From: Candidatus Caldarchaeum sp. | Lineage (GTDB): Archaea > Thermoproteota > Nitrososphaeria_A > Caldarchaeales > Caldarchaeaceae | NCBI GenBank assembly: GCA_038885755.1 | Contig: JAVZZH010000001.1 | Location: 231,432 to 263,431, forward strand | Length of the DNA: 32,000 nt | Direction of reading: 5' to 3' | Part shown: positions 5,884-28,354 of the stretch, piece after piece | How the letters are laid out: every line of letters begins with the position of its first letter | How positions within the stretch are numbered: the first letter of the stretch is position 1 | Notes under the pieces: model-generated | Told to the model about the DNA's origin: nothing | What the model saw: only the letters and a program-made list of their open reading frames with translations | The model's database searches: none | Position numbers and translations under genes: made by a program

Positions 5884-6573
5884 TTAAAGAACTGTCTTGC
5901 CGCAGTTGGGGCACGTACCGTTAATGTTTACGTATGCCTCTGCGCACCCCTGATGAAACACGACCCCGCAGCTGCTGCATCTAACAGCGTTCTCGGCCGT
6001 GACGGTTGTGTAGCATATGGGGCAGACCGTTTCATCCTCAACGTTTTCAACCCTCTCCAAGCTGGTCTCCTCCGGAACCGACGAACTCGTCAACGGCTCC
6101 TGCTCCCCGTAGTACTGGGGATACGGAACCTCGACCCTCTGCGGCCTCGTCAGGACAACCACGAGCCCCAAAGCCATCAGAACCACGGCCGTGAACAGAG
6201 CTGCGAAGAAGCCTAGGTCAGGTTCTCCGGAGACGTTGAGCCTCGGCAGCGCAACCATGCTGAGGTACACGGGTGAAAGCAAGGCGAGGACGCCTCCTAG
6301 AATCGAGAAAGCCGCTAGGATGATTCTCACCGTCCCAGCCCGCGACGAGAAGGATGTGGCGAGAAGCGAGAGGCCTGCGAGCATTCCGCCGGCTACTGAA
6401 AACATCAGGGTCTCGGTCAACAGATAACCGCTCAGAAGGCTTCTGGAAACAGTGTCAGCCCTTACCACGTACCAAGGCAGCAGAAGAGTAAGGATGTGCA
6501 TGCTCCCAACTAGCGCAAGCAAGGAGCCGAGCTTGAAAAACCTTACCAAAAGCCGTTGCTCGGAGACTATCAT
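5884..6573 (-). CDS. Membrane-anchored protein with a C-terminal C4HC3 RING-type zinc finger (candidate membrane E3 ligase)
   Basis: About four N-terminal hydrophobic helices are followed by an acidic linker and then CPIC-x11-CSSC-x4-H-x2-C-x10-CPNC. This spacing is identical to the small finger protein at 7846..8076. Confidence 0.8.
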   Translation of the reverse strand: MIVSEQRLLVRFFKLGSLLALVGSMHILTLLLPWYVVRADTVSRSLLSGYLLTETLMFSVAGGMLAGLSLLATSFSSRAGTVRIILAAFSILGGVLALLSPVYLSMVALPRLNVSGEPDLGFFAALFTAVVLMALGLVVVLTRPQRVEVPYPQYYGEQEPLTSSSVPEETSLERVENVEDETVCPICYTTVTAENAVRCSSCGVVFHQGCAEAYVNINGTCPNCGKTVL

Positions 6574-6702: not shown

Positions 6703-7536
6703 ATGGGCCTGCTTTCCAAGCGCGGCGACAACATGGTCGACCTCCGTAAAGAGGTTGCCGCTTTAAGGGTGCAGTTAATCGACAGGATGGAGGAGAGAAT
6801 AGGCCTTGTCGAGGAGGCTTTGTCGAAGCTCAAGGAGGATGTTAGGCTCGTCCTAGACCAGTTTTCGGCTCCACACAAGATAATGGTAAACATGCAGGAG
6901 ATCCTTGCACGTGGAGCTGTCCTCAACGAGACTCTCGACGAGTTCAAGGCGGCTACAGAGGAGCTGAAGGCTATGCGCAACAGCGTGCAGGAGATGACTG
7001 AAGCCTTGATGAGGGAGAGGGAGCAGCTTGCGAAGGAGATGCAGAGGTATAAGGCTGAGAGAGACGGTTTGAACGCCTTGAGGGAGGAGGTTTCCAGATG
7101 GAGGGCCGAGCTTGAGCAGAAAGAGCGTCAGATCGCAGAGGCTCAGGAGACGCTTAAAACTCTTCTGAGGAAGAAGGAGAGCTTGGAGGAGGAGGTCCGG
7201 ATGCTGAGCGATAGATACTTGACTTCTTTCGATGATGCTCAGAAGAAGCTCGAGGCATACGGGAGGGAGATGGACAAGATGTTCAAACTGAGGGAGATCA
7301 GGATGGAGAGGTTGATTCGTAGGGAGAAAGAGCTCGAGGACAGACTGGCTGCGTTGGAAAACAGCAAGTCAGAGGCTGAGAAGCTTATTGCTTTCGCTAA
7401 TAAGCTGAAGGAGGAGGTGAGCAAGCTGGAAGCCTACAAGGAATCGCTGTCAAACGAGATATCTCAGATGGAGAAGAGGAGGGCTGAGCTGAACGAGCTG
7501 ATAACTGAGATGAGGCGGGCATTCCTCACTTCATAA
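6703..7536 (+). CDS. Long coiled-coil protein (277 aa), function unknown
   Basis: E/K/R/L-rich heptad-like sequence runs throughout. A TATA-like TTTATAA at 6673-6679 lies about 27 nt upstream of the ATG. Confidence 0.75.
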   Translation: MGLLSKRGDNMVDLRKEVAALRVQLIDRMEERIGLVEEALSKLKEDVRLVLDQFSAPHKIMVNMQEILARGAVLNETLDEFKAATEELKAMRNSVQEMTEALMREREQLAKEMQRYKAERDGLNALREEVSRWRAELEQKERQIAEAQETLKTLLRKKESLEEEVRMLSDRYLTSFDDAQKKLEAYGREMDKMFKLREIRMERLIRREKELEDRLAALENSKSEAEKLIAFANKLKEEVSKLEAYKESLSNEISQMEKRRAELNELITEMRRAFLTS

Positions 7537-7842
7537 CTTCAGAGCCTTCTTTATCTGAGCAACTGTCGCAGACAACTCTCCCAACGCGTTTAGAACATCT
7601 CTCATGTCGTCTGCAAGAATAGTGAGCTGGTCCTCGATATCCCTCAACTTCTTCTCGAAGCCTTCGGGAGGTTTTTCCTCTCTCTGCAGCGAGTTGATTT
7701 TGGCGTTGACTTTTTCGATTTCCTCGAAAACCTCGACAAGTAGCTCAGCTAGCTGCTTGACTCCCTCAAACCGTGCAACAGGCCCCTTCGGCGTCTCCAG
7801 AAAGTCCAGTTCTACCACCTTCTCGTTTTTCTCCTCCGACAT
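7531..7842 (-). CDS. Small acidic helical protein (103 aa), last gene of the ubiquitin-like operon
   Basis: The ATG lies 3 nt after the RING-finger gene stop and is preceded by GGAGGAGTGA (Shine-Dalgarno-like). I recognise no family. Confidence 0.7.
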   Translation of the reverse strand: MSEEKNEKVVELDFLETPKGPVARFEGVKQLAELLVEVFEEIEKVNAKINSLQREEKPPEGFEKKLRDIEDQLTILADDMRDVLNALGELSATVAQIKKALKL

Positions 7843-7845
7843 CGC

Positions 7846-8076
7846 TCACTCCTCCACGATCGTTCTCCGGCAGAGGGGGCAGGTCTTCCTGATAAGCAGC
7901 CAGTCGTCGAAGCACGTCATATGACCTACAGCCCCGCAGTGAGGACAGCTGTAGATTTTGTCGTTCGACAGCTCCAGCCCACAGATTACACACAGGCCTG
8001 TCCTCTCCTTCTTCTCAGACACGGCTTCGAACGGGTTCCAGAAGCCCGCGTTAACTTCCTTGACCACTATCTTCAA
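7846..8076 (-). CDS. Small RING-type zinc finger protein (candidate E3 ligase)
   Basis: 76 aa with C29-x2-C32-x11-C44-x2-C47-x4-H52-x2-C55-x10-C66-x2-C69 (cross-brace C4HC3 pattern). The TTG start at 8076 (alternative GTG at 8067) overlaps the E1 3' end. Confidence 0.85.
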   Translation of the reverse strand: MKIVVKEVNAGFWNPFEAVSEKKERTGLCVICGLELSNDKIYSCPHCGAVGHMTCFDDWLLIRKTCPLCRRTIVEE

Positions 8077-9241
8077 CGAGCCTCACCCTTACAGAGAGTG
8101 GAGCAGCCCTCCTGCTCGTGTGGACGAAGACCACGTCCCCGTCTTTCAGCCCCGAGCCTATCAAGGTTTCGGATTCGTTTATCAGCCGGGTTCCGTGCTG
8201 GAGCTGGACGTCCGGGAACATAAACTTGCTGGATATTCTCTCCAAGAAATCGACTACTCTTTCGTGAGGATGTGCGGTCATCTCGACTGGTTTATCGCTG
8301 TCAGACCCGCATACATGGCAGAGCTCGTTCCTAGCAAGCCTGACCCTAGAGACACGGCCGTTCAGCCCGTCGTAAACGAGCAGCCCGCTCAAAGACCTTC
8401 CCAAAGAGCCGTCGTGCAGAACTCTAACGACTTCGAAGACGCCTAGGCCGGCTACTGTTGCGGATATGCTTAGAACGGCTGGAATCTTCGGGTTGAGCAG
8501 ACTACGTAAACGGTTGACGAGGTTTTTGAGCTCTGGACTCAGCCCGTCGACAACCTTCTGAGGGGCGTATTTTATGTCGTAGAGCGTCTTGATGTTGTGG
8601 TTGAAAAGCTCAGCCGCCTCATCCAACCCCACTGCTATGCCTCTGTCCCTGAGCTCGGAGACGAGGTCTTCAGGCTTCCTCCGCCTCAGAGAGCATTCAG
8701 CTGCCTGAACCTCCAAAGGGATCAGGGCCTCCGCATGACACTCGATACAAGCCGTCTGTCGCGGGATTATCGTCTGAACGTTCCCGTAGTATCCGTCGGT
8801 CGCTAGGTCGACTAAAGGCTTGCCCAGCTCCACGGCCATAGAGTTAATCCATCGCCTAGTCGGCCAGTTGTCTACACAGCTGACCAGCACGTCGAACTCA
8901 GAGAAGACATCCTCACCTATGTTCCTTACATCCTTGTGCATCCCAACAACGTGCACTAGAGGGTTCATGCGTCTAACCCGCTGCTCCGCAAGCTCCGCCT
9001 TCGGCTTTCCTATATCCTCGTCGACGTAAAGCATCTGCCTGCTTAGGTTGGAGAGCTCAACGACGTCGTTGTCGACTAGAAGCAGTTCGCCCACGCCCAT
9101 CAACGCTAGGTTCTTAGCCGCTTCACATCCAAGAGCGCCGACTCCAGCGACCAGCACACGGGCTGACGCCAGCCTGCGCTGGTCCCAGCCCTCAAGCATT
9201 AGTTGTCTGTCGTACCGTGCTAGTGCTGAGCCTGCATCCAA
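8051..9241 (-). CDS. E1-like ubiquitin-activating enzyme (ThiF/MoeB/UBA family) with an extra C-terminal domain
   Basis: Contains RYDRQLML...VLVAGVGALGCEAAKNLALMGVGELLLVDNDVVELSNLSRQ (adenylation Rossmann fold). Paired CIEC and CHVC zinc motifs are present. A C-terminal tail of about 90 aa includes GLKDGDVVFV, which looks beta-grasp-like. Start is TTG. Confidence 0.92.
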   Translation of the reverse strand: MDAGSALARYDRQLMLEGWDQRRLASARVLVAGVGALGCEAAKNLALMGVGELLLVDNDVVELSNLSRQMLYVDEDIGKPKAELAEQRVRRMNPLVHVVGMHKDVRNIGEDVFSEFDVLVSCVDNWPTRRWINSMAVELGKPLVDLATDGYYGNVQTIIPRQTACIECHAEALIPLEVQAAECSLRRRKPEDLVSELRDRGIAVGLDEAAELFNHNIKTLYDIKYAPQKVVDGLSPELKNLVNRLRSLLNPKIPAVLSISATVAGLGVFEVVRVLHDGSLGRSLSGLLVYDGLNGRVSRVRLARNELCHVCGSDSDKPVEMTAHPHERVVDFLERISSKFMFPDVQLQHGTRLINESETLIGSGLKDGDVVFVHTSRRAAPLSVRVRLVEDSGQGS

Positions 9242-9242
9242 C

Positions 9243-9749
9243 CTAGAGACCCTTTCTCCTGCCCAGCTTAAAAGCTTCCTCCGGAGAGGCGTAGACCTCT
9301 AAAAACTGTCTCACCCGGGCCATGAAGAGGTCGGGCCTGTTTTTGTACTCGAAGGCAGCGATGGGGTTTAGCGGGTCTTCGGGGTTGGGGTTGTTCAGCA
9401 GGTTTCTGAGAGCCTCTATGACGGCGACTATTCTGAGGGAGGGCGACCAGTGGTCCTTGAAGACAGACTCGCAGACGCGAGCCGGAACTGTGTCTGAGAA
9501 GTTTGGATGCCATATTCTTGTGTGCCAAACTATGTCGGGCGGGAAGTAGGGGTACGAGCGCGGTATAAGGATCTCGACCCTGAAGTATCCGCCCTCGTAA
9601 ATGTTTGTCCCGATTATCACGCCCTCGTAGTGTGTAAGGTCGTTCTCGACCGGGCTGAACGTCGGTTCATTTTCCTGGATGAGCGAATACTCGAGCGCCA
9701 GCCTCCTGTGCCATGCGCTCTCAGGCAGCTCAGCGTAAACGTTCTCCAT
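9243..9749 (-). CDS. E2 ubiquitin-conjugating enzyme (UBC fold)
   Basis: Contains IWHPNF (the HPN motif) followed by PARVCESVFKDHWSPSLRI, which matches the catalytic-Cys context of the canonical ICLDIL..WSP. The 168-aa length is typical. Confidence 0.92.
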   Translation of the reverse strand: MENVYAELPESAWHRRLALEYSLIQENEPTFSPVENDLTHYEGVIIGTNIYEGGYFRVEILIPRSYPYFPPDIVWHTRIWHPNFSDTVPARVCESVFKDHWSPSLRIVAVIEALRNLLNNPNPEDPLNPIAAFEYKNRPDLFMARVRQFLEVYASPEEAFKLGRRKGL

Positions 9750-9984
9750 TTCCCCCCACCGTACGGGTGATGAGGACGAACTTATCCCCGTCGGCGACGC
9801 CTAGGCTCTGAAGGGTCTCCGTGTCCTTCAACGCCCTTCCCTTGTATGTAAGCCTAGTTGTGTCTGGGGGGAGCTTCCTCATGGCGCATACCTTGGTCCT
9901 AACCGCTCCAATCGTTGCGTTCGGCGAAACCTCCAACTCTAAAGGGCTTCCTCCACCCACGGCAGGCACTATCTTTATCTTCAT
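9730..9984 (-). CDS. Ubiquitin-like beta-grasp modifier precursor (di-glycine followed by a 6-aa tail)
   Basis: MKIKIV...LEVSPNATIGAVRTKV...LPPDTTRLTYKGRALKDTETL...FVLITRTVGG-NGERLR aligns by eye along the full length of eukaryotic ubiquitin. GG is at aa 77-78 of 84. Confidence 0.9.
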   Translation of the reverse strand: MKIKIVPAVGGGSPLELEVSPNATIGAVRTKVCAMRKLPPDTTRLTYKGRALKDTETLQSLGVADGDKFVLITRTVGGNGERLR

Positions 9985-10008
9985 ACTGCAGGCTTGTTAA
10001 GCTAAAGT

Positions 10009-10018
10009 GTATATAAGG
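10009..10018 (-). promoter_or_regulatory. Candidate TATA box for the ubiquitin-like operon
   Basis: The minus strand reads CCTTATATAC. Its centre is about 29 nt upstream of the Ub-like ATG (9984), consistent with a leaderless or near-leaderless archaeal promoter. Confidence 0.45.
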
Positions 10019-10042
10019 TTTAACGGCGTGTAAAACGTCGAA

Positions 10043-10067
10043 AATGTCGATGAAATATTTCGACATT
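10043..10067. promoter_or_regulatory. Inverted repeat AATGTCGA-n9-TCGACATT in the divergent promoter (candidate operator)
   Basis: Perfect 8-bp arms at 10043-10050 and 10060-10067 flank an AT-rich 9-nt spacer. An additional GTCGA half-site lies at 10037-10041. The element sits between the two TATA-like boxes. Confidence 0.4.
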
Positions 10068-10102
10068 CCCGAAAGAGTCTAGTCGTCGGGAGAAACACGA
10101 CA

Positions 10103-10111
10103 TTTTTAATA
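10103..10111 (+). promoter_or_regulatory. Candidate TATA box for the JAMM protease gene
   Basis: TTTTTAATA is centred about 29 nt upstream of the in-frame ATG at 10136. Confidence 0.45.
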
Positions 10112-10126
10112 CCCGGCTTTGTCTCC

Positions 10127-10744
10127 TTGGAAGCGATGCGTGTAAGGATATACCCGCTAGCCCTAGCTAAGATTGTCAAGCATTCAACCACCTTCCTGAA
10201 CAAGGAGGTTGCCGGGCTGCTGGTGGGTAAGTCGGCGGGGAAGGTCCTCGAAGTGTGGGACGCCGTGACCGGGGAGCAGTACGGAACCGCCGCCTACGTC
10301 CATCTCGACGAGGCTGTGATGTCTCGTGTTGCGGAGCAGCTTTCTGAGGATGGTAAAGGCCTTTACATAGTGGGATGGTATCATTCACACCCCGGGTTGA
10401 CGGTTTTCCTATCTCCCACCGACATAGACACTCAGAAACGTTATCAGAGCATTTATCCCAAGGCCGTGGCCTTGGTGATAGACCCGTCCAAGTATGTCGA
10501 GACACGTAGGATCTCGTCGATCGACTTCAAAGTCTTCCAGATATCGAAGGAGGGGAAAGTGGTGTCCCTGCCCGTGTCTATAGGAGTTCAGAGGTCTAAG
10601 CTGCTGGAGAGCACTTTCCATGCTTTGAGCACTTTTGATGTGAGGCATCTACTCCAGCAGTCGGAGGGTATGACTGAGAGCGGTCCGCAAGCCGGTGAAG
10701 ACGGAAGCTTGCTGGGAAAAGCTAAAAAGCTGTTCGGAAGATGA
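10127..10744 (+). CDS. JAB1/MPN+ (JAMM) metalloprotease, Rpn11-like deubiquitinase / precursor-processing enzyme
   Basis: The JAMM motif is intact: EVAGLLVG (Glu) and GWYHSHPGLTVFLSPTDIDT (HxHx7Sx2D). The track start is TTG at 10127. The ATG at 10136 fits the TATA spacing better. Confidence 0.92.
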   Translation: MEAMRVRIYPLALAKIVKHSTTFLNKEVAGLLVGKSAGKVLEVWDAVTGEQYGTAAYVHLDEAVMSRVAEQLSEDGKGLYIVGWYHSHPGLTVFLSPTDIDTQKRYQSIYPKAVALVIDPSKYVETRRISSIDFKVFQISKEGKVVSLPVSIGVQRSKLLESTFHALSTFDVRHLLQQSEGMTESGPQAGEDGSLLGKAKKLFGR

Positions 10745-10757
10745 GGAGGGAGACGCG

Positions 10758-11531
10758 TTGCCTAAGAAAATCGTGCTGAAGATAAAGCATGAACAGCAGC
10801 AGGAGCAGCCGGAGGTCGAGCCAGCCCAGCAACAACCTATTGAGGTGCCGGCCGTCGCCGAGCCCGAGCCTGCACCACCTCAGCAAGCTCCTCAGCCGGG
10901 AGACCTTGAGGAAGCCCTGAAGCAGTACCAGGACTTGATGAAAGAGCTTGAGCTGATCAAGAACCTCGACAAGAACTTCATAGCCTACTGCGTAAAGCTC
11001 GAAGACCTTAGGCCTAACCTTATCAGGAGCATTCTGGGGCGTTTGTCGGAGAAGCGCAACGCTTTGCTGGAGAGATCTGCCGCGGTGCTGGAGAGTATGA
11101 AGGCTGTGCGGGATTCGTTGGGGTCGGAGTTTGCTGAGGTTGAGGAGGAGCTCATTTGGAGCAGCATAGAGCTCAACACGATGCAGCTAGAGGGCTCCAA
11201 GGCTGATGCTGCAAGGGTTGGTCTGAAAGAGGAGCTTGAGGCCAAAATACCCGAGCTCCGGAAGAAGCTCACCAACCTGAGGAACAGGCTGAAGATGGTC
11301 GAGGACGTTGTCAAGCAGCTGTCCGAACTTCCACGAAACATAGTCGAACTGACTACCAGCAAGGAGGACATAGCTAAGCTGTTTGAGGATGCAAAGAAGA
11401 GGTATATTCTGACGCATGGCCAGAGGGCGGAGGCTGTGCTTAGGGCCGAGATAGACAGGGTTGCCCAGCAGGAAGCCATTCCCAGAGAATACGCCACGCT
11501 GCTTGTCTGGAAGGCCTCGCTCCAGCGTTAA
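10758..11531 (+). CDS. Hypothetical helical protein with a Q/P/E-rich N-terminus, coupled to the JAMM gene
   Basis: The track ORF begins at GTG 10695 and overlaps the JAMM gene by 50 nt. I prefer TTG 10758, which lies 7 nt after a strong GAGGAGGG Shine-Dalgarno-like site spanning the JAMM stop. I recognise no family. Confidence 0.7.
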   Translation: MPKKIVLKIKHEQQQEQPEVEPAQQQPIEVPAVAEPEPAPPQQAPQPGDLEEALKQYQDLMKELELIKNLDKNFIAYCVKLEDLRPNLIRSILGRLSEKRNALLERSAAVLESMKAVRDSLGSEFAEVEEELIWSSIELNTMQLEGSKADAARVGLKEELEAKIPELRKKLTNLRNRLKMVEDVVKQLSELPRNIVELTTSKEDIAKLFEDAKKRYILTHGQRAEAVLRAEIDRVAQQEAIPREYATLLVWKASLQR

Positions 11532-11935
11532 ACCACAGGCCTGAACTTCACCCCGTACACTATTAGAGTTGAGTCGCTGTCCCACCTAAGCCTTCTGACA
11601 ACAGCTTCAACAGGTATGCCTGGTTTCAGGTCTTGAGGATTGCAGTCAGTAAGCTGGCCTACGACTCTAGTTCCGTCATCCATCTCTACCAAACCCACGG
11701 CGAAAGGCGTGCTGTTTTCAAACCCTCCTTGGGCTTGGTACACAACAGTGAACTGCACGAGCCTGCCGGTGTTGTTCAGCCTGTCGGAGTCCAGCCTTTT
11801 TGAGGAGCATCTACGGCATGCAAGCCTCTTCAACGGATGGAAGTGGCCGCAGACGGAGCAGCGGCTTCCCTCAAGGCGGTAGATGAACGGTCTGAGCCGC
11901 CAGTAAACGGGAGGTCTGGACGCCACGATGTTCAC
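11528..11935 (-). CDS. DUF35-family zinc-ribbon/OB-fold protein (scaffold of the archaeal thiolase/HMG-CoA synthase complex)
   Basis: Contains a CSVCGHFHPLKRLACRRC zinc ribbon followed by an OB-fold-like region. Its GTG start overlaps the thiolase stop (GTGA). Confidence 0.85.
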   Translation of the reverse strand: MNIVASRPPVYWRLRPFIYRLEGSRCSVCGHFHPLKRLACRRCSSKRLDSDRLNNTGRLVQFTVVYQAQGGFENSTPFAVGLVEMDDGTRVVGQLTDCNPQDLKPGIPVEAVVRRLRWDSDSTLIVYGVKFRPVV

Positions 11936-13095
11936 CTAAGGCTCTCTAGGACTACTGCGCCTGCGCTGGACCCTAGGCCGGCGATGGACACGACCATGCC
12001 TTTCTCAGCTCTGTCCACTTGGTTCTTGGCTGCGTTTTGCGTGAGCTGCATGAAAGCCTCGACCAAGGCGTACACTCCCGAGGCCCCTGCCGGATGGCCT
12101 CTCCCTTTCAAGCCTCCGAAAGTGTTTATCGGGAGATCACCGCTTAGGCTGAACCTACCCTTCTCAGCCTCAAGGCAGGCTCTCCCCCTCTCCGCAAGCC
12201 CGAGAGATTCGAGGATGAGCGGGGTCATAATGCTGTAGGATTCGTGGAGCTCTATGAAGTCAAGGTCCCTTCCCCTTAGACCGGCCATCTCCAGTGCTCT
12301 TCTTCCAGCCGTGCTGACCGAGCTCAACTCAAGGGGGTCTTCTCTGTCGAACGGAACTAGAAAGTCTGTCGAGAAGCTTGCTCCTGTGAGGAGGCATTTG
12401 TGGCCGTCGATTTTGCTGGCGAGGTCTTCGGACACGACTATTATGGCGGCGGCTCCGTCGGCTGGCGCGGTAGTTTCGAGCCTGCGCAGAGGCTCCGCCA
12501 CGTAGGGTGAGTTCATGACTGTTTGAAGGTTTAGCTTGAACTGGTATTGTGCGTGAGGGCATGTAGAGGAGTGTTCATGGCTCAGAACGGGGAAGTATGC
12601 TACGTTTTCTGGTAGAAGCTTGTATCTCGATAGGTACTCTTTGTAGAGGAGGGCGGCTTGGGCTAGCTGGCTTACTCCGAGGAACCCGGTGCATTCCTGC
12701 CTCTCCTCCATCGTAAGAAGGCTTAGGGCCTCCTCAGCCGTTCCATCCGACATCTTCTCTACGCCGACAACCATAGCGGCTTTCGAAACCCCCATCATCA
12801 CGGCTGCAGCAGCGGAGTAGAGGGCCATCAACCCAGACACGCCGCCGGCCTCGACACGAGTCGCGGCAACGTTCCTTAGCCCCAGCTCCTCCGCTAGAAC
12901 CGACCCTAGATTAACCTGTTCTTGAAGCTTCTCGCCGTAGACGTTCGCGACGTAGACATGGTCGACTGAGGAGAGGCCTGAGCCCTCCAAGGCTTTCAAC
13001 CCCGCTTCAGCCATCATCTCGGCCAAGCTCCTGTCCCAGTGTTCATCGACTTTGAGGACTGAACCCCCGCAGACGACTGCTTTCAACCTGCTCAC
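11932..13095 (-). CDS. Acetyl-CoA acetyltransferase (archaeal thiolase)
   Basis: Shows a thiolase-superfamily pattern, including the C-terminal NTFGGLKGRGHPAGASGVY. I trimmed the track ORF (to 13320) to GTG 13095, which forms a GTGA overlap with the upstream stop and gives 387 aa. Confidence 0.9.
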   Translation of the reverse strand: MSRLKAVVCGGSVLKVDEHWDRSLAEMMAEAGLKALEGSGLSSVDHVYVANVYGEKLQEQVNLGSVLAEELGLRNVAATRVEAGGVSGLMALYSAAAAVMMGVSKAAMVVGVEKMSDGTAEEALSLLTMEERQECTGFLGVSQLAQAALLYKEYLSRYKLLPENVAYFPVLSHEHSSTCPHAQYQFKLNLQTVMNSPYVAEPLRRLETTAPADGAAAIIVVSEDLASKIDGHKCLLTGASFSTDFLVPFDREDPLELSSVSTAGRRALEMAGLRGRDLDFIELHESYSIMTPLILESLGLAERGRACLEAEKGRFSLSGDLPINTFGGLKGRGHPAGASGVYALVEAFMQLTQNAAKNQVDRAEKGMVVSIAGLGSSAGAVVLESLR

Positions 13096-14180
13096 ATCCG
13101 GATCTTGTCTCTGTACTTTAGGTATGTTGCGTAGTCTATTTCTGTCCTCCTGCTGAGCATCTGGGCGTAGGTGGGGGCCCTGTTTCGCCTCTCGACAACG
13201 CCGTCGCAGACGGTCAGGACGAATGAGTCGCTGCCAGCTCCCGAGCCGTAGGATGTGGCCAGTATTCTCTGTCCCGGTGAAGCTATGTCTAGTATCTTTG
13301 CGAGGGCCAGCATGGAGCACGCTGCATAGGTGTTTCCGACCATGTCGGCCACAAGCCCGGGCAGTATCTTCGAGCTCGGTATTGACAAGACCTTGGCAAC
13401 TGCAAGCGGGAACTTGACGTTGGGCTGGTGGAAGGCGAAGTAGTCTATGTCGTTGACTGAGAAACCGTTTTCAGCGAGAATGGTGTTGACAGCCGAGATG
13501 GTGTGGTGGAAGTATGCAGGCTCACCCGTGAACCTTGACGCATGAACGGGATATCTCTCGTAGCTTCTGCGCCAAAAATCAGGAGTGTCCGAGACAAATG
13601 AAACAGAGTACTCAAACCGAGCTATACAGTTGTTGGTGTTAGGCCCTATGACAAAGGCAGCCGCCCCGCTGGCCGCTGTGTACTCGAGGGCGTCGCCCGG
13701 CCTTCCCTGAGCTGTGTCGGCACCAATCGCAATCCCGTACTCTATCCTGCCTGCTTCGACCAGTGCTGTGATGAACTGTACAGCCTCCGTCCCCGCCTTG
13801 CATGCAAACTCCAAGTCGGCGGAGGTAGTGCTTCTTGAAACGCCGAGTATCTCTGCGACGAGCGTCCCGGTGGGCTTGACTGCGTAGGGTTTCGACTCTG
13901 TCCCGACGTGGACGGCGGCTATCCTCGACGGGTCTATTCCCGCCCTCCTCAACGCATACCTGGCTGCTTCAACAGACATCGTCACGGTGTCTTCGTCGAG
14001 TCCAGCCACGGCCTTCTCCTTGACCGGAAGGTCTGCAGGGTTCTTGCCCCAGACCCTAGCCAGCTCCTCGCCCTTCAGCCTGAACCTGGGGAGGTATATG
14101 CCGTATCCATGGATGGCTGCGTTGCTGATTCTGGGCATCTGGGTGTTGGTGCTGTAGGGTTGTATTAAAGTCTCTTGCAT
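13092..14180 (-). CDS. Hydroxymethylglutaryl-CoA synthase (archaeal type)
   Basis: Contains GYGIYLPRFRL, VGTESKPYAVKPTG and the catalytic-Cys context EFACKAGTEAV. An alternative start is the ATG at 14138. Confidence 0.9.
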   Translation of the reverse strand: MQETLIQPYSTNTQMPRISNAAIHGYGIYLPRFRLKGEELARVWGKNPADLPVKEKAVAGLDEDTVTMSVEAARYALRRAGIDPSRIAAVHVGTESKPYAVKPTGTLVAEILGVSRSTTSADLEFACKAGTEAVQFITALVEAGRIEYGIAIGADTAQGRPGDALEYTAASGAAAFVIGPNTNNCIARFEYSVSFVSDTPDFWRRSYERYPVHASRFTGEPAYFHHTISAVNTILAENGFSVNDIDYFAFHQPNVKFPLAVAKVLSIPSSKILPGLVADMVGNTYAACSMLALAKILDIASPGQRILATSYGSGAGSDSFVLTVCDGVVERRNRAPTYAQMLSRRTEIDYATYLKYRDKIRM

Positions 14181-20871: not shown

Positions 20872-21891
20872 CTATTGATGTGTTTGTTGAACTGTTTTCC
20901 AAAGATGTTTTAAAGAATGGATGTTTTTATACTGCATGGTTTGTAGAAGTTCTTTAAGCATGTCCCTGACCGCTGTAGCACCCCTATAGGCGAGCGCTGT
21001 GTAGATTTGAACGGTGTTCGCACCATTCATCAATGTATTGAGCACGTCTTCGCCGGTGAAGATTCCCCCTACAGCGTGAATTTCAAAATCCTCGCCGTAC
21101 ATGCTTCTAACTTCTTTGACGCATTTTATCATGCGCGGGTATAGCGGCCTGCCGCTTAAACCACCTCTACGGGCCGAGACTCTAGGCTCTTCAACAAGCA
21201 ACGCGTTGACGGCTGTGACGCCTTCGAACCCTGTGTCATGCCAGGTGTTGACGATCTTGTAAATAAGGTCCCGCTCCTCGCTGTTCGTGTACGGCGGTAT
21301 CTTTAGATAGGTTGGTCTCCGCTTATGCTGGTGCAGGGCTTCAGCGACCTGCTTGAATTTCTCCAGCTGAAAATAGTGGCGTAGCTGAGGCGTGTTGGGT
21401 GAGCTTATGTTGACCTCGACACCGGAAGCGAAGGGCTGAACCTCCCTGTAGCATTCTAGAAGGTTTTCCACGTCTTCATCGCTTACGCTCACCAATACAG
21501 GTATGCCAGAGTTTCCTGACATGGCGAGGTTTTGAACAAACTTTTTCAGCCCGGGGTTTGGAAAACCCATCGCGTTAACAAGGCTTTCTTCGCTTCTCCG
21601 CCGGACTATACGGGGTTTTTTCATACCTTTCCGTAGGTTCTTGGTGACGGTGCCGACTACAAGGTATCCGAACCCAAGCTTCTCCAGATGTTTAACGCAT
21701 TCGCCTGCTTTGTCGAAGCCAGCCGCCAGACCTATGGGGTTTTTTAAACGACCGAACCACGTATCCACGTAAAGCCTCTCGTCTCCGAAACCTATGTTAT
21801 ACGGCATCAGCCTAAGAAGTTTCATCCCAAGGTCGTGGGCTGCCTCCGCAGGCAGCCTCGCCAACAACGTCTGAACAAGCTTCAGCATCAT
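20872..21891 (-). CDS. pyrD: Dihydroorotate dehydrogenase, class 2-like (quinone-dependent)
   Basis: Contains NPIGLAAGFDKAGE, VEVNISSPNTPQLR (Ser catalytic base, class-2 signature) and GGLSGRPL. The N-terminal helix region LPAEAAHDL is also present. Confidence 0.92.
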   Translation of the reverse strand: MMLKLVQTLLARLPAEAAHDLGMKLLRLMPYNIGFGDERLYVDTWFGRLKNPIGLAAGFDKAGECVKHLEKLGFGYLVVGTVTKNLRKGMKKPRIVRRRSEESLVNAMGFPNPGLKKFVQNLAMSGNSGIPVLVSVSDEDVENLLECYREVQPFASGVEVNISSPNTPQLRHYFQLEKFKQVAEALHQHKRRPTYLKIPPYTNSEERDLIYKIVNTWHDTGFEGVTAVNALLVEEPRVSARRGGLSGRPLYPRMIKCVKEVRSMYGEDFEIHAVGGIFTGEDVLNTLMNGANTVQIYTALAYRGATAVRDMLKELLQTMQYKNIHSLKHLWKTVQQTHQ

Positions 21892-22334: not shown

Positions 22335-22409
22335 CGGGCCCGGCGGGATTTGAACCCGCGGCCCCCGGGTTAAAAGCCCGGTGCTCTGTCCTGACTGAGC
22401 TACGGGCCC
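22335..22409 (-). tRNA. tRNA-Lys (anticodon UUU), 75 nt, no encoded CCA, no intron
   Basis: Manual cloverleaf fold. Acceptor stem GGGCCCG/CGGGCCC, D arm GCUC-loop-GAGC, anticodon stem CCGGG/CCCGG with loop CUUUUAA, T arm GCGGG-UUCAAAU-CCCGC, discriminator G. Confidence 0.93.
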
Positions 22410-22988: not shown

Positions 22989-24653
22989 CTAGAACCGTGG
23001 AGGAGGAGGCGGAGGAGGTGGATACCTTGGCCCAGCTCTTCTCCTCGTGATGATTAGGGCGAACGCTGCGAGCAACGCTCCAAGCACGATTGCCAAGCTT
23101 ACGTAATCCTCGCCGGATGTTTCCGGAGGAGGTGGTTTCACAGTAACCGTGACAACGATGGTCTGCGTTTCCCTGCCGAAAACCGTCTGAGTCGTGTAAA
23201 CCGTTTGAGCAACCGTGCCGGTGACGGTTCTCGTGACCGTCCTAGTGACTTCAACCGTCTCTTTTTCTTCGACGGGCGGCTCTTCACCGAGGCCGATGGA
23301 TAAAACGACCGTTCCAGCGGATTGGTCGAAACTCATCACCTTGATGACGAACCCCTCATCTGTCGCGTATTCGCTGTTTTCGAAGTTTAGTTCCAAGGGA
23401 TTGGGTAAAGCTCTGAGGCTGTGTATCCAGTTTGTCCGGTAGCTAGGCTCGATTATTGGTGCGTCAACCCCTTCGCACAACCTAACCACCCTAGATTCAA
23501 GGCGCTCGCAGATAGCTGGTGTGTCGGGATTGGCTTCAATCAGTCTGATAAAATATTTTTCGTCGACTATGTTCCTGTCAACGTATTCGTTGACGCGGAA
23601 GACGAGAACACCGGGGCCGGGAAGAGCTGCGTCGTTTTTCACAGGCCTTCGGGCATGGATAAAGTAGTATTCTTTATCGTTGATGCGGATAATGAGAGCA
23701 TGCGGTTCATCCGGTCTATCAAGCGTGTGTATCAAATATTCTCCTGTCTTCTCCACCTCGACCGCCTCTATCCATCCGAGGATGTATTTTGACCAGCCGT
23801 CGATGTCGACTGGCGGGTCGAGGAACGCACCGTAATCCATGTTTGTCCACACTCCTACTTCACTGCCCGCGCTGTATCCGTCTTTGTCGTAAACGTAGTG
23901 GTCGGATATCCACATGCTGTGCGTGAATTCATGCGCCAAAACCGCTGGAAAATCATCCTCGGCTACAGTCAGTATCCCCGCCAACAAATTCCCTTTTCCA
24001 TCCCTACCCCTATGCATGAAAAGGTCTACGGCCCAGTCGAGTCCCTGTCTACGAAGCGCTTGCTCCAATTCATCGAACCCATATTGTTCAATTAGGTCGT
24101 AGAGAACCCTCGGAACAACGCAGTGACAATGGCTCCAGACGTCGTTCGCTGACCCGCTGATAGCTTCGTCTCTCCCCGCATGTATCACTATGACGTGCTT
24201 AAACTTCGATACGTCGACACGTTCTCTTTCCTTGACTGTCTTTATCACGGTCAAGTGGTATTCCAGAATTCTTTGATTGTCGTCTCCTCTCTGCGCTCCA
24301 CTACTCGGACCGCCGTAGTAGCTCATGGTTTTAGGCAACGTGATGACTTTAGGATGAATATAGTAGTCGAGCCACGTCTTACCGTATGACGATGAGCGGA
24401 CGAAGTCGTCGACGACTTTAACTATCTGCTCCGCTTGAGTCCTGCCTATCCGCATTTTGACGTCGCTAAAATCTACTAGGACGACAAGAGTCGGCTGTGC
24501 ACCGAGGAAAGCTACCGGTTTATGCCACCTTCTCTCTTGTTGTTGAGACACTCCGGCTGGAATCAAGACACCGAGCAGAAGCAATCCTAAAACGAGGAGA
24601 ACAATTTTACGCAAACCTGTATCCACACCTCCTGCATGCAAAGTCTCCAGCAT
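22989..24653 (-). CDS. Secreted, C-terminally membrane-anchored zinc metalloprotease (M6/InhA-like HEFxH...D motif) with a polyproline cytoplasmic tail
   Basis: Signal-like LRKIVLLVLGLLLLGVLIPAGVSQ; VLAHEFTHSMWISDHY (HExxH plus downstream Asp); a Thr/Val-rich stalk; a TM helix; and the tail RRRAGPRYPPPPPPPPRF. The track start at 24740 is rejected because of a 134-nt overlap. Possible starts are ATG 24653 or TTG 24614. Confidence 0.8.
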   Translation of the reverse strand: MLETLHAGGVDTGLRKIVLLVLGLLLLGVLIPAGVSQQQERRWHKPVAFLGAQPTLVVLVDFSDVKMRIGRTQAEQIVKVVDDFVRSSSYGKTWLDYYIHPKVITLPKTMSYYGGPSSGAQRGDDNQRILEYHLTVIKTVKERERVDVSKFKHVIVIHAGRDEAISGSANDVWSHCHCVVPRVLYDLIEQYGFDELEQALRRQGLDWAVDLFMHRGRDGKGNLLAGILTVAEDDFPAVLAHEFTHSMWISDHYVYDKDGYSAGSEVGVWTNMDYGAFLDPPVDIDGWSKYILGWIEAVEVEKTGEYLIHTLDRPDEPHALIIRINDKEYYFIHARRPVKNDAALPGPGVLVFRVNEYVDRNIVDEKYFIRLIEANPDTPAICERLESRVVRLCEGVDAPIIEPSYRTNWIHSLRALPNPLELNFENSEYATDEGFVIKVMSFDQSAGTVVLSIGLGEEPPVEEKETVEVTRTVTRTVTGTVAQTVYTTQTVFGRETQTIVVTVTVKPPPPETSGEDYVSLAIVLGALLAAFALIITRRRAGPRYPPPPPPPPRF

Positions 24654-25608
24654 AGACGGGGAATCTACAGGCGGGGCAGTATCCCACGATTGACGGCGGC
24701 GGGGGTGGGGGCTGCTGATAGGTCGATGAGGGCGGCGCATACACTGGATACGGATAGGTTGGCGGTAGAGGTCTTTTCCTAGCCCGCGTAAAGAATAGGG
24801 TTGCTCCGATTATTCCCGCCGATACACCGACGGCTACGGGTAGCGGAAAGACCGCTGAACTAGGTGGTTGAACTTCTGCTTGAACGGTCGCGGTCGTGGA
24901 GACCGTTGTAGTGGCTACGATGGTTTCTACGCGTGTTTCTACTCTTGTCAAAGTTTCTATCGCCGTTTCGGTTACCGTCTCCGTCCTTTCCTGCACCACC
25001 GTGGTTCTAGTTGTGGCAACGGCTGTTGTCCTCCGCGTGGTCACCGGCGTCGTGTAAGTCGACGTCGACGCCACGGCCCCGCTCTGCTCGATGTTCACTA
25101 GCTGCAGGCCTTTTTTCTGGCCGAATATCACGCCGAGAAGCAGGCCTTTCAACCGGCTGAAAGGCTCTGGCCCGTCTTCGATAAACATCCAGAAAGTCGA
25201 CTGGTCTGTCGAAGCAACGATCGTGAGCTTAATGCCTTGCATCTCAAGTCCTTTCTGAGCGACTACGACATCTACTCCACCGAACTTGAAACGCGTTCCG
25301 GGGCTTAGGTCGAGTGGAATCCATAAATCAATCCTCACTCCCGGCTGAATTTCTCCGTTGGGCTTGACGTTTAAGCTGGTCGGCCTCATGACATCCGATT
25401 GGATGGCGACGGTGATGGCCTGAGGTGAGACGGATTCGATTATGTATCTGTGGAAAAGGTTCTCAAGCTGCTGTTTCTGCAAGTCGACGACTTGATATAC
25501 AAAAACGAATCCACGCTGAATGTATGGAGGCGGCTGCTGCGAGTATACGGGAGCAACCAAGGCCAAAGCAATTATGGAAACGGTTAACAAAGAAAGTAGT
25601 GAGCGCAT
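24607..25608 (-). CDS. Surface protein with signal peptide, Thr-rich stalk, TM anchor, Pro-rich (PPxY-like) tail and a terminal CxxC-x10-CxxC zinc ribbon
   Basis: I set the start at ATG 25608 (MRSLLSLLTVSIIALALVAPVYSQ), 7 nt after the upstream stop. The C-terminus is ...RKRPLPPTYPYPVYAPPSSTYQQPPPPPPSIVGYCPACRFPVYAGDFACRRCGYRFA. Confidence 0.75.
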   Translation of the reverse strand: MRSLLSLLTVSIIALALVAPVYSQQPPPYIQRGFVFVYQVVDLQKQQLENLFHRYIIESVSPQAITVAIQSDVMRPTSLNVKPNGEIQPGVRIDLWIPLDLSPGTRFKFGGVDVVVAQKGLEMQGIKLTIVASTDQSTFWMFIEDGPEPFSRLKGLLLGVIFGQKKGLQLVNIEQSGAVASTSTYTTPVTTRRTTAVATTRTTVVQERTETVTETAIETLTRVETRVETIVATTTVSTTATVQAEVQPPSSAVFPLPVAVGVSAGIIGATLFFTRARKRPLPPTYPYPVYAPPSSTYQQPPPPPPSIVGYCPACRFPVYAGDFACRRCGYRFA

Positions 25609-25615
25609 CTTCGCA

Positions 25616-26494
25616 TCACGCTGTTTTCTCGACGGGTGCTTTGCCAGCCGCGTAGCCCCAGGCAACTTCGTCCTGCAGTGCCCATAAAACCCTCTGCACC
25701 AAAGCTGCGAGGAACAGAACGGTCAACAACCCTGTTCCAACTAGCCGGATAAACAAAGGCTGGCCCCCGAGCAGAGCAATCACAAACGCTGCGATGGCCT
25801 TGAATAGAGCCACCGGAATAAAGCCGGTAAGCAGGTCGCCGAAGCCTACCGATGTGTACTTAGCTTTGACGTATCCAATCCACCATCCCGTGAACGCCGG
25901 AAACATCACGTATATGAATTCCTCCAAAGCCAGCGTCAGCAAAAATTCAGGCCGAAGCGGAACGTATCCCCCGAGCAGGTAGAAGTTGTTGTAGAGAACG
26001 TATCCGAGGCCCAGAGAAACACCGTATACGGCTCCGTCGAGGTGGTCGTTGAATTCCCTGCCGGTGAACCTGTTGGCGTCCAGAAGATAGAGGATGAGGA
26101 AGAAGATGAATTCGAGGAGGATGAGTTTGGCGACGTAGGAGGTTAATCCCGCTGGGAACGGGAGGAGGTTGAAAAGGGCTGCGACCACGACGCCGACGCC
26201 TATCACAGCTACAACAAGTGTCTTCGGCTCCGGCTCATACCTGTCTGTCCGAACCAGCCAAGCCAAAAGCAGCGCTATCGGCAGCACTGAAAGCCCGACG
26301 TAAACCATTATTCCACGGATTTCAGCGACGAGCAGCCCTGCAGCCAAAACGGCGATTACGGCGAATACACCGACAACCCAGAGCCTACTGCCGGAATAAA
26401 CAATCATACCTCTCTGATAAATCTCTGAAGTAGGAGACTTGATAGGAGTCCGCTTGAACCATGTGGCGAACGCTTCCCGCCACAGTGAGGACAT
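25616..26494 (-). CDS. Multi-pass membrane protein, distantly PrsW-like (tentative)
   Basis: Polytopic hydrophobic profile. DGAVYGVSLGLGYVLYNN resembles the PrsW DGxxYGxxxGLGFAxxEN block, but the expected acidic and His residues are not obvious. Confidence 0.7.
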   Translation of the reverse strand: MSSLWREAFATWFKRTPIKSPTSEIYQRGMIVYSGSRLWVVGVFAVIAVLAAGLLVAEIRGIMVYVGLSVLPIALLLAWLVRTDRYEPEPKTLVVAVIGVGVVVAALFNLLPFPAGLTSYVAKLILLEFIFFLILYLLDANRFTGREFNDHLDGAVYGVSLGLGYVLYNNFYLLGGYVPLRPEFLLTLALEEFIYVMFPAFTGWWIGYVKAKYTSVGFGDLLTGFIPVALFKAIAAFVIALLGGQPLFIRLVGTGLLTVLFLAALVQRVLWALQDEVAWGYAAGKAPVEKTA

Positions 26495-26498
26495 CTCA

Positions 26499-27044
26499 CT
26501 ACACCGCAGGCAGCATCAAAGCCACGTAAATTACGGCGCCGAGAAACACGAAGTATCCGAATAAGTAAACGCCCACGGCCAAAGGCTCTTTATCAACGTC
26601 GTCGAGGTCAAGGCCGAACGGCTCTATCTTAGCCAATATCCTGTAGTAGATGATTGCGAAGACGTAGGAAAGCAGGACAGCGGCGAAAAGTGTTATGAGT
26701 TTGTAGGCTATGAGCACGGCTGGGTTGACGTTGAGAGTCGCGACGCCTGTTTCAAGCCCGATGGGTAGGGGGGAGGCCATCGACGCGACGAAACCCATCG
26801 AAAGATAGACGAAGAAACCAGCCGCAAACACGCCCGTAGCCAAAGAATTACCCCTTATGACCTGAATTTCACGAATACCCGGAGTAATCAAGTCAACAAC
26901 ACGAACAGAGACCAACCCGATCAAAAACACGACGACGAAAGTCAAGAAAGTACGGATCAAAACCCAGCCAAGCCCCGTCAGGAAAACAACGGGGTCAGCC
27001 CAAGTAGGCGGAAGAGGAGGCTCGACCTGCATCAGGGAGAGCAT
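26499..27044 (-). CDS. Integral membrane protein (possibly DUF350-like)
   Basis: 181 aa with several hydrophobic helices and a GNSLATGVFAAG block. TATTTATA is centred about 27 nt upstream of the ATG. This is the first gene of a four-gene cluster. Confidence 0.72.
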   Translation of the reverse strand: MLSLMQVEPPLPPTWADPVVFLTGLGWVLIRTFLTFVVVFLIGLVSVRVVDLITPGIREIQVIRGNSLATGVFAAGFFVYLSMGFVASMASPLPIGLETGVATLNVNPAVLIAYKLITLFAAVLLSYVFAIIYYRILAKIEPFGLDLDDVDKEPLAVGVYLFGYFVFLGAVIYVALMLPAV

Positions 27045-27364: not shown

Positions 27365-28354
27365 TTATGTGTTTCGATGGGTTGTGGGTTTTGTTTCCAG
27401 CAGCCGAGGAGGCTCGAAGCCTTCAGCTTTGGCTGCGCTGACCCAGTACCGGCTTACCGTCTCCTGTATGTGGTTGATTGCTTGTTGCTGGCGGTGGGGG
27501 GTGAAAAGATGTCTGTATCGACCCTGAACCCTCAAGTATTCTTCCACGGGCTTGAGCGCTCGAGGCACGACCGTGTGGCGCACCACTCCATGCACTGCTT
27601 CCTTCAAAGGCCACACCCCGGTGTCGACAGCCAGCCTTGAAACCTTTACAGCTTCTGAGGAGTCGAACCCCCAGCCTGTCGGGCAGGGAGCTAGAGAGAT
27701 GAAAAGCTTGGGGCCCCTGAGCCTCGAAGCTTTCTCAACCTTTCTCAGCATGTCGACAACGTGTGAGGGAGCCAGCGTTGCGACGTAGGGCGGTTTGTGG
27801 CTTCTCCAGATCTCGAACAAGTCTTTCTTGACGCCGGTGTAGCCTGCTGGGTTGAGGCTGGTTGGAGGCGTTGTAGAGGTCGAGGAACCATAGGGGGTTG
27901 CGCCGCTTTTCTGGAAGCCTGTGTTGCCGTAGGACTCGTTGTCGTAAACGAGGTAGTAGAAGTCGAGACCTCTCTCGATGGCGCCGGAAGACGACTGCAG
28001 CCCTATGTCGTAGGCAGCTCCGTCGCCGGTCAGAACGACGACCTGCATCCTCTCACCCGGACTCAACCTGCCCTTCGCAATCAGGATGTCGAACGCATCG
28101 CTTATTCCCTGAGCTCCGGCGGGAGCCGACGCGAACGCCGTGTACATCCAGCTGGACTTGAGCGGAGTATATGGGTAGACCTGCATCAGAGTCAGGCATC
28201 CCGCCGCGTTCACGAAGACAACGTTCCCGCCGAGGGCTTTGTGGAAGACCCTCAGAACCAGCATGGCGCCGCAGCCGGCGCACATGGGCGATCCCGGTGA
28301 AAGATACTCTTCGACGGGAAACTCTCTCAAAGTCTTGAACTTGGTCTCCATCAT
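27365..28354 (-). CDS. porB: 2-oxoacid (pyruvate-type):ferredoxin oxidoreductase beta subunit (TPP-binding)
   Basis: Contains GSPMCAGCGAMLVLR and the TPP motif LTGDGAAYDIGLQ. An ATGA overlap couples it to the alpha subunit gene. Confidence 0.9.
   Translation of the reverse strand: MMETKFKTLREFPVEEYLSPGSPMCAGCGAMLVLRVFHKALGGNVVFVNAAGCLTLMQVYPYTPLKSSWMYTAFASAPAGAQGISDAFDILIAKGRLSPGERMQVVVLTGDGAAYDIGLQSSSGAIERGLDFYYLVYDNESYGNTGFQKSGATPYGSSTSTTPPTSLNPAGYTGVKKDLFEIWRSHKPPYVATLAPSHVVDMLRKVEKASRLRGPKLFISLAPCPTGWGFDSSEAVKVSRLAVDTGVWPLKEAVHGVVRHTVVPRALKPVEEYLRVQGRYRHLFTPHRQQQAINHIQETVSRYWVSAAKAEGFEPPRLLETKPTTHRNT

Follow-up and report, generated by a model that had tools for sequence, protein, structure and literature searches.

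The closest described relative of the system discussed here is the ubiquitin (Ub) gene cluster of Caldiarchaeum subterraneum. In this cluster Nunoura et al. (2010/11, PMC3082918) described rpn11l, ubl, e2l, e1l and srfp and noted that genes overlap and that Rpn11 lies on the reverse strand. Hennell James et al. (2017, PMC5654768) reconstituted the cleavage of pro-Ub by Rpn11 and the auto-ubiquitylation of E1/E2, as well as deubiquitylation and the ATP-dependent and srfp-dependent ubiquitylation of Rad50; Rad50, a coiled-coil protein, served as an artificial substrate. Fuchs et al. (2018, PMC6043591) solved the structures of CsRpn11 and of the CsRpn11-CsUb complex, where Cs stands for C. subterraneum, and remarked that "a second E3 protein" adjoins the operon. 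They also reported that the small modifier proteins (SAMPs) of C. subterraneum, on which CsRpn11 is inactive, have their own JAMM protease, encoded elsewhere in the genome. The core system is thus already known: it was described in 2010 and reconstituted in 2017, and its structures followed in 2018. Here, we compare it with a stretch of 32,000 nucleotides from Candidatus Caldarchaeum sp. (assembly GCA_038885755.1, contig JAVZZH010000001.1, positions 231,432 to 263,431 of the forward strand), called the window below, which carries genes for Ub, E2, E1 and a RING protein next to a divergent Rpn11-like protease gene.

A prior reading of the DNA from its letters and open reading frames (ORFs), called the sequence-only reading here, had pointed to both the same architecture in C. 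subterraneum and its reconstitution in vitro, and the publications bear this out (PMC3082918, PMC5654768). It had also called the set rare, which does not hold within the Aigarchaeota. Hua et al. (2018, PMC6053391) found the set of Ub, E1, E2, E3 and deubiquitylating enzyme in six of the six Aigarchaeota bins analysed. By that survey, the core set is the rule in this lineage, being carried by all the genomes examined, and is universal there rather than rare.

The ubiquitin operon and the divergent Rpn11 gene

The window contains a real and intact eukaryote-like Ub operon together with an Rpn11 protease gene. From the comparisons given below, the locus very probably corresponds, as an orthologue from a different Candidatus Caldarchaeum species, to the eukaryote-type ubiquitylation system of C. 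subterraneum. The core features are as follows (lengths in amino acids, aa; E-values for Pfam matches).

7846-8076, minus strand: RING gene (srfp, E3), 76 aa; zf-RING_2 (PF13639), 1.1e-09
8051-9241, minus strand: E1, 396 aa; ThiF (PF00899), 3.4e-59
9243-9749, minus strand: E2, 168 aa; UQ_con (PF00179), 4e-29
9730-9984, minus strand: pro-ubiquitin (Ub), 84 aa; ubiquitin (PF00240), 1.2e-12
9985-10135, no strand: divergent promoter region of 151 bp with two TATA-like boxes
10136-10744, plus strand: Rpn11-like MPN+/JAMM metalloprotease, 202 aa; JAB, 9.4e-21

The genes run in the order Ub-E2-E1-srfp in overlapping or abutting frames. The ORF list shows an overlap of 20 nt between E2 and Ub, a gap of 1 nt between E1 and E2, and an overlap of 26 nt between srfp and E1. 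It reproduces exactly the five ORFs and the junctions that the sequence-only reading had claimed. That reading had assigned the products to the ubiquitin, UBC E2, ThiF E1, RING and JAMM families and had proposed a check against Pfam profiles; when this was run, each of the five proteins fell in its expected family above the gathering cutoff. All of the quoted motifs were found (LITRTVGG-NGERLR in Ub, WHPNF...RVCESVFKDHWSP, GVGALGCEAAKNL, CIEC...CHVC, and HSHPGLTVFLSPTD with its upstream Glu). The E2 cysteine, the E1 adenylation residues and the JAMM metal ligands align with the catalytic positions, and no misplaced family or misaligned catalytic residue was encountered. Two details needed correction. 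The four-gene Ub-E2-E1-RING operon stands, but its end had been placed one gene too early, as a 103-aa gene begins 3 nt past the RING gene. The divergent spacer is likewise present, but it measures 151 bp rather than 142 bp once the Rpn11 start is set at the ATG at 10136.

The modifier is a member of the ubiquitin family with a C-terminal Gly-Gly and a short propeptide. The six residues NGERLR come after its β-grasp domain, the end of which is G77-G78. The protein matches the ubiquitin family of Pfam, rather than ThiS/MoaD. It is 91.7 % identical to the C. subterraneum Ub in pairwise comparison, and T46, G77 and G78 are conserved between the two. The top single-domain matches in the Protein Data Bank (PDB) are 2MQJ, 6FJ7 and 5ZEW (~1e-46 to ~1e-45), and 6FNN was also matched; these entries represent C. 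subterraneum proteins. The propeptides differ in length and sequence: NGERLR has 6 aa, whereas that of C. subterraneum has 9 aa (CGEPIRRAA), so the residue after the Gly-Gly (P1') is Asn in the window and Cys in C. subterraneum. Fuchs et al. showed that the P1' residue modulates cleavage by Rpn11, with C79G accelerating and C79E blocking it (PMC6043591). Across the related loci (designated by L numbers) the propeptides are highly variable and include, besides these two, CGGGGLC, FGDGEHLR, YGRGRGIC and DGVRGVR. At two divergent loci (L016:442-678 and L019:4829-5065) the Ub gene encodes 78 aa, ends exactly in ...RTVGG and has no propeptide; maturation by Rpn11 is therefore not universal in the system.

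The E2 has a UBC fold with the HPN motif at residues 81-83 (H81-P82-N83) and the catalytic Cys93, which aligns to UBE2K's active-site cysteine. It is 82.1 % identical to CsE2 by pairwise alignment, and in the PDB search it matches human UBE2K and UBE2D at ~1e-24. Residues P67/Y68 of loop 4 and P103/S104 of loop 7 are conserved; the equivalent residues were mutated by Hennell James et al. (PMC5654768).

The E1 is minimal. It consists of a ThiF-type adenylation domain, a zinc site made of two CxxC pairs (C165/C168 and C308/C311), a candidate catalytic cysteine and a C-terminal Ub-like domain. The GxGxxG ATP loop (G33/G35/G38), D57, N65...R68, K79/K81 and D124 have aligned counterparts in UBA7's active adenylation domain. 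Cys183 pairs with the cysteine in the P-V-C-T-V-R motif of UBA7 and is, as far as alignment can tell, probably the catalytic cysteine. Residues ~274-375 are weakly similar to Ub itself (tblastn against the L012 Ub gene, E=8e-4), and orthologous E1s have faint precomputed matches to PF00240. Both observations fit the Ub-like domain that Hennell James et al. noted at the C-terminus of archaeal E1-like proteins (PMC5654768). Pairwise identity to CsE1 is 62.8 %. Among PDB entries, UBA7 (1.7e-39) and UBA1 (4e-37) rank better than ThiF (8e-30) and MoeB (2e-27).

The small RING protein has the ligand motif C-X2-C-X11-C-X2-C-X4-H-X2-C-X10-C-X2-C, with the same spacing as that published for CSUB_C1477. 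It is 65.3 % identical to Cs srfp in pairwise comparison. All zinc ligands are present, and I31, W59 and R70 are the counterparts of I30, W58 and R69 in the Cs protein, which were tested functionally; the Ile and Trp are the E2-binding residues. Hennell James et al. discuss displaced H4/C3B residues (PMC5654768), and H46 and C47 are their equivalents. The nine candidate ligands fit both the term C4HC3 used by the sequence-only reading and the RING-H2 of Hennell James et al.

The divergent gene encodes an MPN+ protein with an intact JAMM site (E24, H83, H85, S93 and D96), which comprises all five active-site residues published by Fuchs et al. It matches PDB entries 6FJU and 6FJV ("26S proteasome regulatory subunit N11-like protein"), with 6FJU, the CsRpn11 structure, at 3.7e-98, and is 75.7 % identical to CsRpn11 over the pairwise alignment. 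The mechanical ORF list gave this gene as 10127-10744 on the plus strand, starting at a TTG. We place the start at the ATG at 10136 (MRVRIYPL...) because this codon is invariant in eight orthologous loci, the upstream TTG at 10127 is not, and the resulting protein has 202 aa, as does CsRpn11.

The E1 and the protease also bear on whether the locus could encode a sulfur-carrier system of the prokaryote type or one resembling SAMP/Urm1, where a ThiF/MoeB/UbaA enzyme and a ThiS/MoaD-like protein would serve cofactor thiolation or SAMPylation. The top NCBIfam matches of the E1 are indeed ThiF, MoeB and UbaA (1e-43 to 1e-35), and there is a weak desampylase match for the JAMM protein (1.5e-06). All of these scores fall far short of the cutoffs (122 bits against 450 for UbaA; 28 bits against 130 for desampylase). 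The modifier belongs to Pfam ubiquitin and not to ThiS/MoaD, the E1 is closer to eukaryotic E1s than to ThiF/MoeB in the PDB, and CsRpn11 leaves SAMPs unprocessed (PMC6043591). We exclude this reading on these below-cutoff scores and on the presence of a canonical UBC E2 (HPN plus Cys, 4e-29) and a RING protein in the same overlapping operon, and consider it very improbable.

An anti-virus island of Ub-like (Ubl) conjugation, similar to bacterial Bil, CBASS-Cap2/Cap3 or 6A-MBL, would share the same folds. The E1 adenylation domain partly matches PADLOC CBASS 'E1-E2' models (up to 2.6e-21), the protease matches PADLOC 'JAB' models at 1e-06, and there are weak matches to the NCBIfam 6A-MBL cap2_3 model that stay below cutoff (48 bits against 320). 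These matches, however, extend no further than the ThiF and JAB folds that such systems have in common, and no defence model picks up Ub, E2 or RING. The locus lies among housekeeping genes (GlyRS, the mevalonate pathway and ribosomal proteins), and its chromosomal position is conserved throughout the lineage rather than patchy. The ORF list and the family scans show no effector, cyclase or mobile-element gene nearby. A role in defence of this kind is accordingly as improbable as the sulfur-carrier system.

Two TATA-like boxes lie in the divergent promoter region. The box on the Ub side, TATATAAG at 10010-10017 (CTTATATA on the minus strand), is located 26-33 nt upstream of the Ub ATG, and the box on the Rpn11 side, ATTTTTAATA at 10102-10111, is located 25-34 nt upstream of the Rpn11 ATG. 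Across eight loci both are invariant or nearly so. Given standard archaeal promoter geometry, we infer from this spacing that the mRNAs are leaderless or have a very short leader. A scan for sigma-70 promoters and terminators, which is not applicable to archaea, gave nothing above background. Between the TATA boxes, at 10034-10106, the motif AAAATGTCG/CGACATTTT makes up inverted repeats, with arms at 10038-10050/10060-10072 and 10041-10049/10098-10106; one copy overlaps the Rpn11 box. The central block of these repeats is partly conserved between species, and they could form an operator for a regulator of both promoters.

Archaeal promoters also speak to a eukaryotic origin of the genes, either by contamination or by recent horizontal transfer from a eukaryote. 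The components are closely eukaryote-like, as the E2 match to human UBE2K/UBE2D illustrates. The genes, on the other hand, are intronless, overlapping and operonic and use GTG/TTG starts. The archaeal TATA boxes are conserved, and the GC content of the operon is uniform with that of its flanks. Their colinearity with archaeal housekeeping genes recurs in many independent metagenome-assembled genomes (MAGs) and in the C. subterraneum genome. The operon structure, the archaeal promoters and the synteny exclude a eukaryotic source, which we hold to be the least probable of the alternatives.

The reference for the orthology is the C. subterraneum locus L006 (BA000048.1:1427034-1447297), with the core genes CSUB_C1473-C1477. 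The window is colinear with it over at least 13 genes. A comparison with this cluster, which the sequence-only reading had proposed, thus returns orthologous proteins of 63-92 % identity in colinear order. A contig scan of genomes based on E1, which reached only five close Caldarchaeum MAGs, found the same arrangement in these five. NCBI records from "Candidatus Caldarchaeum sp." MAGs already contain identical sequences for Ub, E2, E1 and the membrane RING protein, under the names ubiquitin-like domain-containing protein, ubiquitin-conjugating enzyme E2, ThiF family adenylyltransferase and RING finger protein.

If the orthology extends to function, Ub would be synthesised as the 84-aa precursor, and the soluble Rpn11-like Zn protease would cut after G78 to release NGERLR. 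The ThiF-type E1 would then adenylate Gly78 with ATP and form an E1~Ub thioester, probably on Cys183, from which Ub would pass to Cys93 of the E2. The 76-aa RING protein would bind the E2 through I31 and W59 and stimulate transfer to substrate lysines and the formation of chains, and Rpn11 would additionally strip Ub from conjugates. The two back-to-back TATA-box promoters would drive Ub-E2-E1-srfp-hyp103 on one side and Rpn11-cc278 on the other, where hyp103 and cc278 are neighbour genes described below. Three points weigh against carrying the C. subterraneum results over to this locus. The biochemical data come from C. subterraneum proteins only (PMC5654768, PMC6043591), E1 and srfp are just 63-65 % identical to the proteins that were tested, and the P1' Asn lies outside the published cleavage variants (Cys, C79G and C79E).

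Neighbouring genes and their linkage to the operon

Four further genes flank the core set.

7531-7842, minus strand: hyp103, 103 aa, the likely fifth cistron; ATG 3 nt past the srfp stop
6703-7536, plus strand: cc277, a 277-aa coiled-coil protein, convergent with hyp103 with a 6-nt overlap of the 3' ends
5884-6573, minus strand: TM-RING, a second E3 of 229 aa; Pfam zf-RING_2, 8.2e-09
10758-11531, plus strand: cc278, ~257 aa from the likely TTG start at 10758, 13 nt past the Rpn11 stop

A GGAGGAG lies just ahead of the hyp103 ATG. The AlphaFold2 (AF2) model of its product, which is of moderate confidence (pLDDT 72.7), has a short β-hairpin followed by a helical hairpin, and the motif V..L....TP.G.V, which is invariant in the family, lies in the N-terminal β-hairpin. 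A Foldseek search of this model against the PDB gave no fold match, with a single hit at E=8.3. The cc277 model (pLDDT 87.7) is one unbroken helix of ~220 residues (57-276), and this prediction points to an extended coiled-coil rod. A hairpin of the ESCRT-III/PspA type is weakly disfavoured for cc277 by the single helix of the AF2 monomer model. Searches of Pfam, NCBIfam and PADLOC gave generic coiled-coil similarity only, and no recognisable fold or family, for hyp103 and cc277. The labels SMC, Rad50, LmuB, JetC, HmpF and prefoldin-like that appeared for hyp103, cc277 and cc278 were below cutoff and were rejected as compositional.

The likely cc278 start at TTG 10758 was chosen because it is backed by the alignment of orthologues and by an upstream GGAGG. 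The protein has an N-terminus rich in P, Q and E and then a coiled coil, and its gene is co-directional with Rpn11. It follows Rpn11 in contexts of the window type and in those of L017 and L019, at 35-47 % identity.

TM-RING has four transmembrane (TM) segments predicted from hydropathy and a C-terminal RING at residues 184-224, in which the ligands are spaced as in srfp. Its identity to the C. subterraneum orthologue is 65.5 %, and it is this protein that Fuchs et al. mention as a second E3 (PMC6043591). At the related locus L019 (3596-4378), the Rpn11 orthologue has 260 aa and a hydrophobic end (…LIAMALAALAIMMLVAFIFAIG) that resembles a C-terminal membrane anchor, whereas the Rpn11 of the window is a soluble protein of 202 aa. 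Together with the 4-TM RING E3, this anchor-like end hints that part of the pathway is at the membrane.

Synteny within the genus cannot establish that these genes are linked to the operon because the entire neighbourhood, GlyRS and the mevalonate genes included, is colinear over 13 genes. Divergent Caldarchaeales loci were therefore sampled, and their contexts are as follows.

L009 and L012: genes for ribosomal proteins upstream; no adjacent Rpn11 or cc278; hyp and then the convergent cc kept (the L009 contig ends within the cc gene); in L012, TM-RING and GlyRS also kept
L014: an archaellum operon on the upstream side, with peptidase M20 and Ldh downstream; only hyp105 and the convergent cc275 kept
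L019 (E1 identity 47 %): AspRS and a methyltransferase on the upstream side, GlyRS in inverted orientation; the full set of nine genes kept

The gene hyp103 directly follows srfp at every locus examined, distant ones included. The gene cc277 adjoins the operon in all of the sampled contexts, with 32-56 % identity in the divergent lineages. Both accompany the operon in at least four distinct flanking contexts. In L014 the identities are 39 % for hyp105 (E=6e-13) and 35 % for cc275 (E=2.5e-45), and TM-RING is absent from this type of context. Across the sampled loci the invariant block thus comprises six genes (Ub, E2, E1, srfp, hyp103 and cc277), and Rpn11-cc278 and TM-RING are frequent but separable companions. 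In other words, hyp103 and cc277 are tied to Ub-E2-E1-RING more tightly than Rpn11 is.

Word-indexed searches for homologues of srfp, hyp103 and cc277 returned only Caldarchaeum-type relatives of at least 56 % identity; the distant members of the hyp103 family required an exhaustive profile search. Over 1.84 billion representative proteins this search gave 17 hits, of which ~12 are proteins of 104-126 aa. The three distant members that could be placed (P0139, P0142 and P0143) are each encoded by the gene that comes next after RING in a Ub operon. The tiny size of the family argues for a restriction to Caldarchaeales-like lineages.

It may be that hyp103 and cc277 provide a scaffold or adaptor for the RING E3, which has no other domain, or that they are its substrates. 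We infer that the four neighbours, hyp103, cc277, cc278 and the 4-TM RING E3, belong to the same functional module as the core, probably as scaffold, adaptor or target. A bolder proposal is that the Caldarchaeales ubiquitylation system is a conserved module of up to nine genes and not five, in which hyp103 is translationally coupled to srfp, hyp103 and cc277 form a substrate-recruiting scaffold or the primary physiological target of the RING E3, and TM-RING and cc278 constitute a membrane-associated branch. We regard this proposal as possible but rather doubtful. The link of the accessory genes consists of gene neighbourhood only, and all sampled genomes come from one order, where shared ancestry adds to synteny; both facts count against assigning these genes to the module. 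If it is true, the nine-gene module would be the first handle on the in vivo targets of an archaeal Ub system. Candidates for the missing adaptors or substrates are hyp103 and cc277 in the first place, and possibly the two other neighbours as well. In C. subterraneum, the locus tags inferred for the neighbours (CSUB_C1472, C1478, C1479 and C1480) find no mention in the open-access literature searched, and the neighbour genes thus offer a modest lead beyond it.

Other features of the window and of related loci

Just beyond cc278, on the minus strand at 11528-14180, lie genes for HMG-CoA synthase (HMGCS), a thiolase and an OB-fold protein of the DUF35/ChsH2 type, the archaeal mevalonate-entry trio. 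The thiolase ORF (11932-13320) as listed encodes 462 aa and overlaps HMGCS by 229 nt, whereas the C. subterraneum orthologue has 384 aa; the listed ORF is almost certainly over-extended at its N-terminus. Ordinary metabolism is represented by a dihydroorotate dehydrogenase gene at 20872-21891 and by 2-oxoacid:ferredoxin oxidoreductase genes on the minus strand at 27365-30457, with TPP-binding, POR_N/PFOR_II, POR gamma and 4Fe-4S delta-like domains. The tRNA gene at 22335-22409 (minus strand) is the sole hit at the Rfam gathering level in the window. At 22989-27044, also on the minus strand, three large ORFs in a row (583, 352 and 292 aa), none of which matches Pfam at E<=1e-5, precede a gene for a DUF350 membrane protein; this block is unrelated to the Ub operon.

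Two of the related loci have AAA ATPase genes upstream of the Ub gene. In L010 (122-1231) it is a Vps4/CdvC-type MIT-AAA ATPase at a distance of ~5 kb, and in L012 (46-2247) a Cdc48-type AAA ATPase at ~7 kb. Because neither is present at the equivalent position of the window, their proximity is probably coincidental.

Comparison with known systems

The window shares with C. subterraneum the gene order, the overlaps, the divergent Rpn11, the RING spacing and the flanks over more than 20 kb. Every catalytic or interface residue that was probed experimentally is conserved, at protein identities of 63-92 %. The two are separate species. TM-RING has 229 aa in the window and an annotated 250 aa in C. 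subterraneum, which is probably a difference in start codon. These differences leave the architecture unchanged. The core is therefore a further species-level copy of the best-characterised archaeal Ub system, correctly annotated in public databases, and its value is comparative: at this level of divergence the tested catalytic and interface residues are fixed, while the length of the propeptide and the P1' residue vary. The Asgard clusters (Clusters I-III in Hennell James et al. 2017), by their published description, are alike in having the four component families in archaeal operons.

The eukaryotic machinery (UBA1/UBA7, UBE2D/UBE2K, RING-H2 E3s and Rpn11/PSMD14) has homologous folds and motifs and the same E1-E2-E3 logic. 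It differs in several respects. The E1 of the window is a single ThiF-type protein of 396 aa without FCCH and SCCH domains, and its E3 is a bare 76-aa RING without a substrate-binding domain. The genes of the window are operonic. Its Rpn11 is free-standing, without Rpn8 or a lid, and by analogy with CsRpn11 would also mature the Ub precursor. The SAMP/UbaA/HvJAMM1 system and the bacterial Bil and CBASS Cap2-Cap3 systems have in common with the window a β-grasp modifier, a ThiF-type E1 and a JAB protease. Unlike the window, they do not combine a canonical HPN-type UBC E2 with a RING E3.

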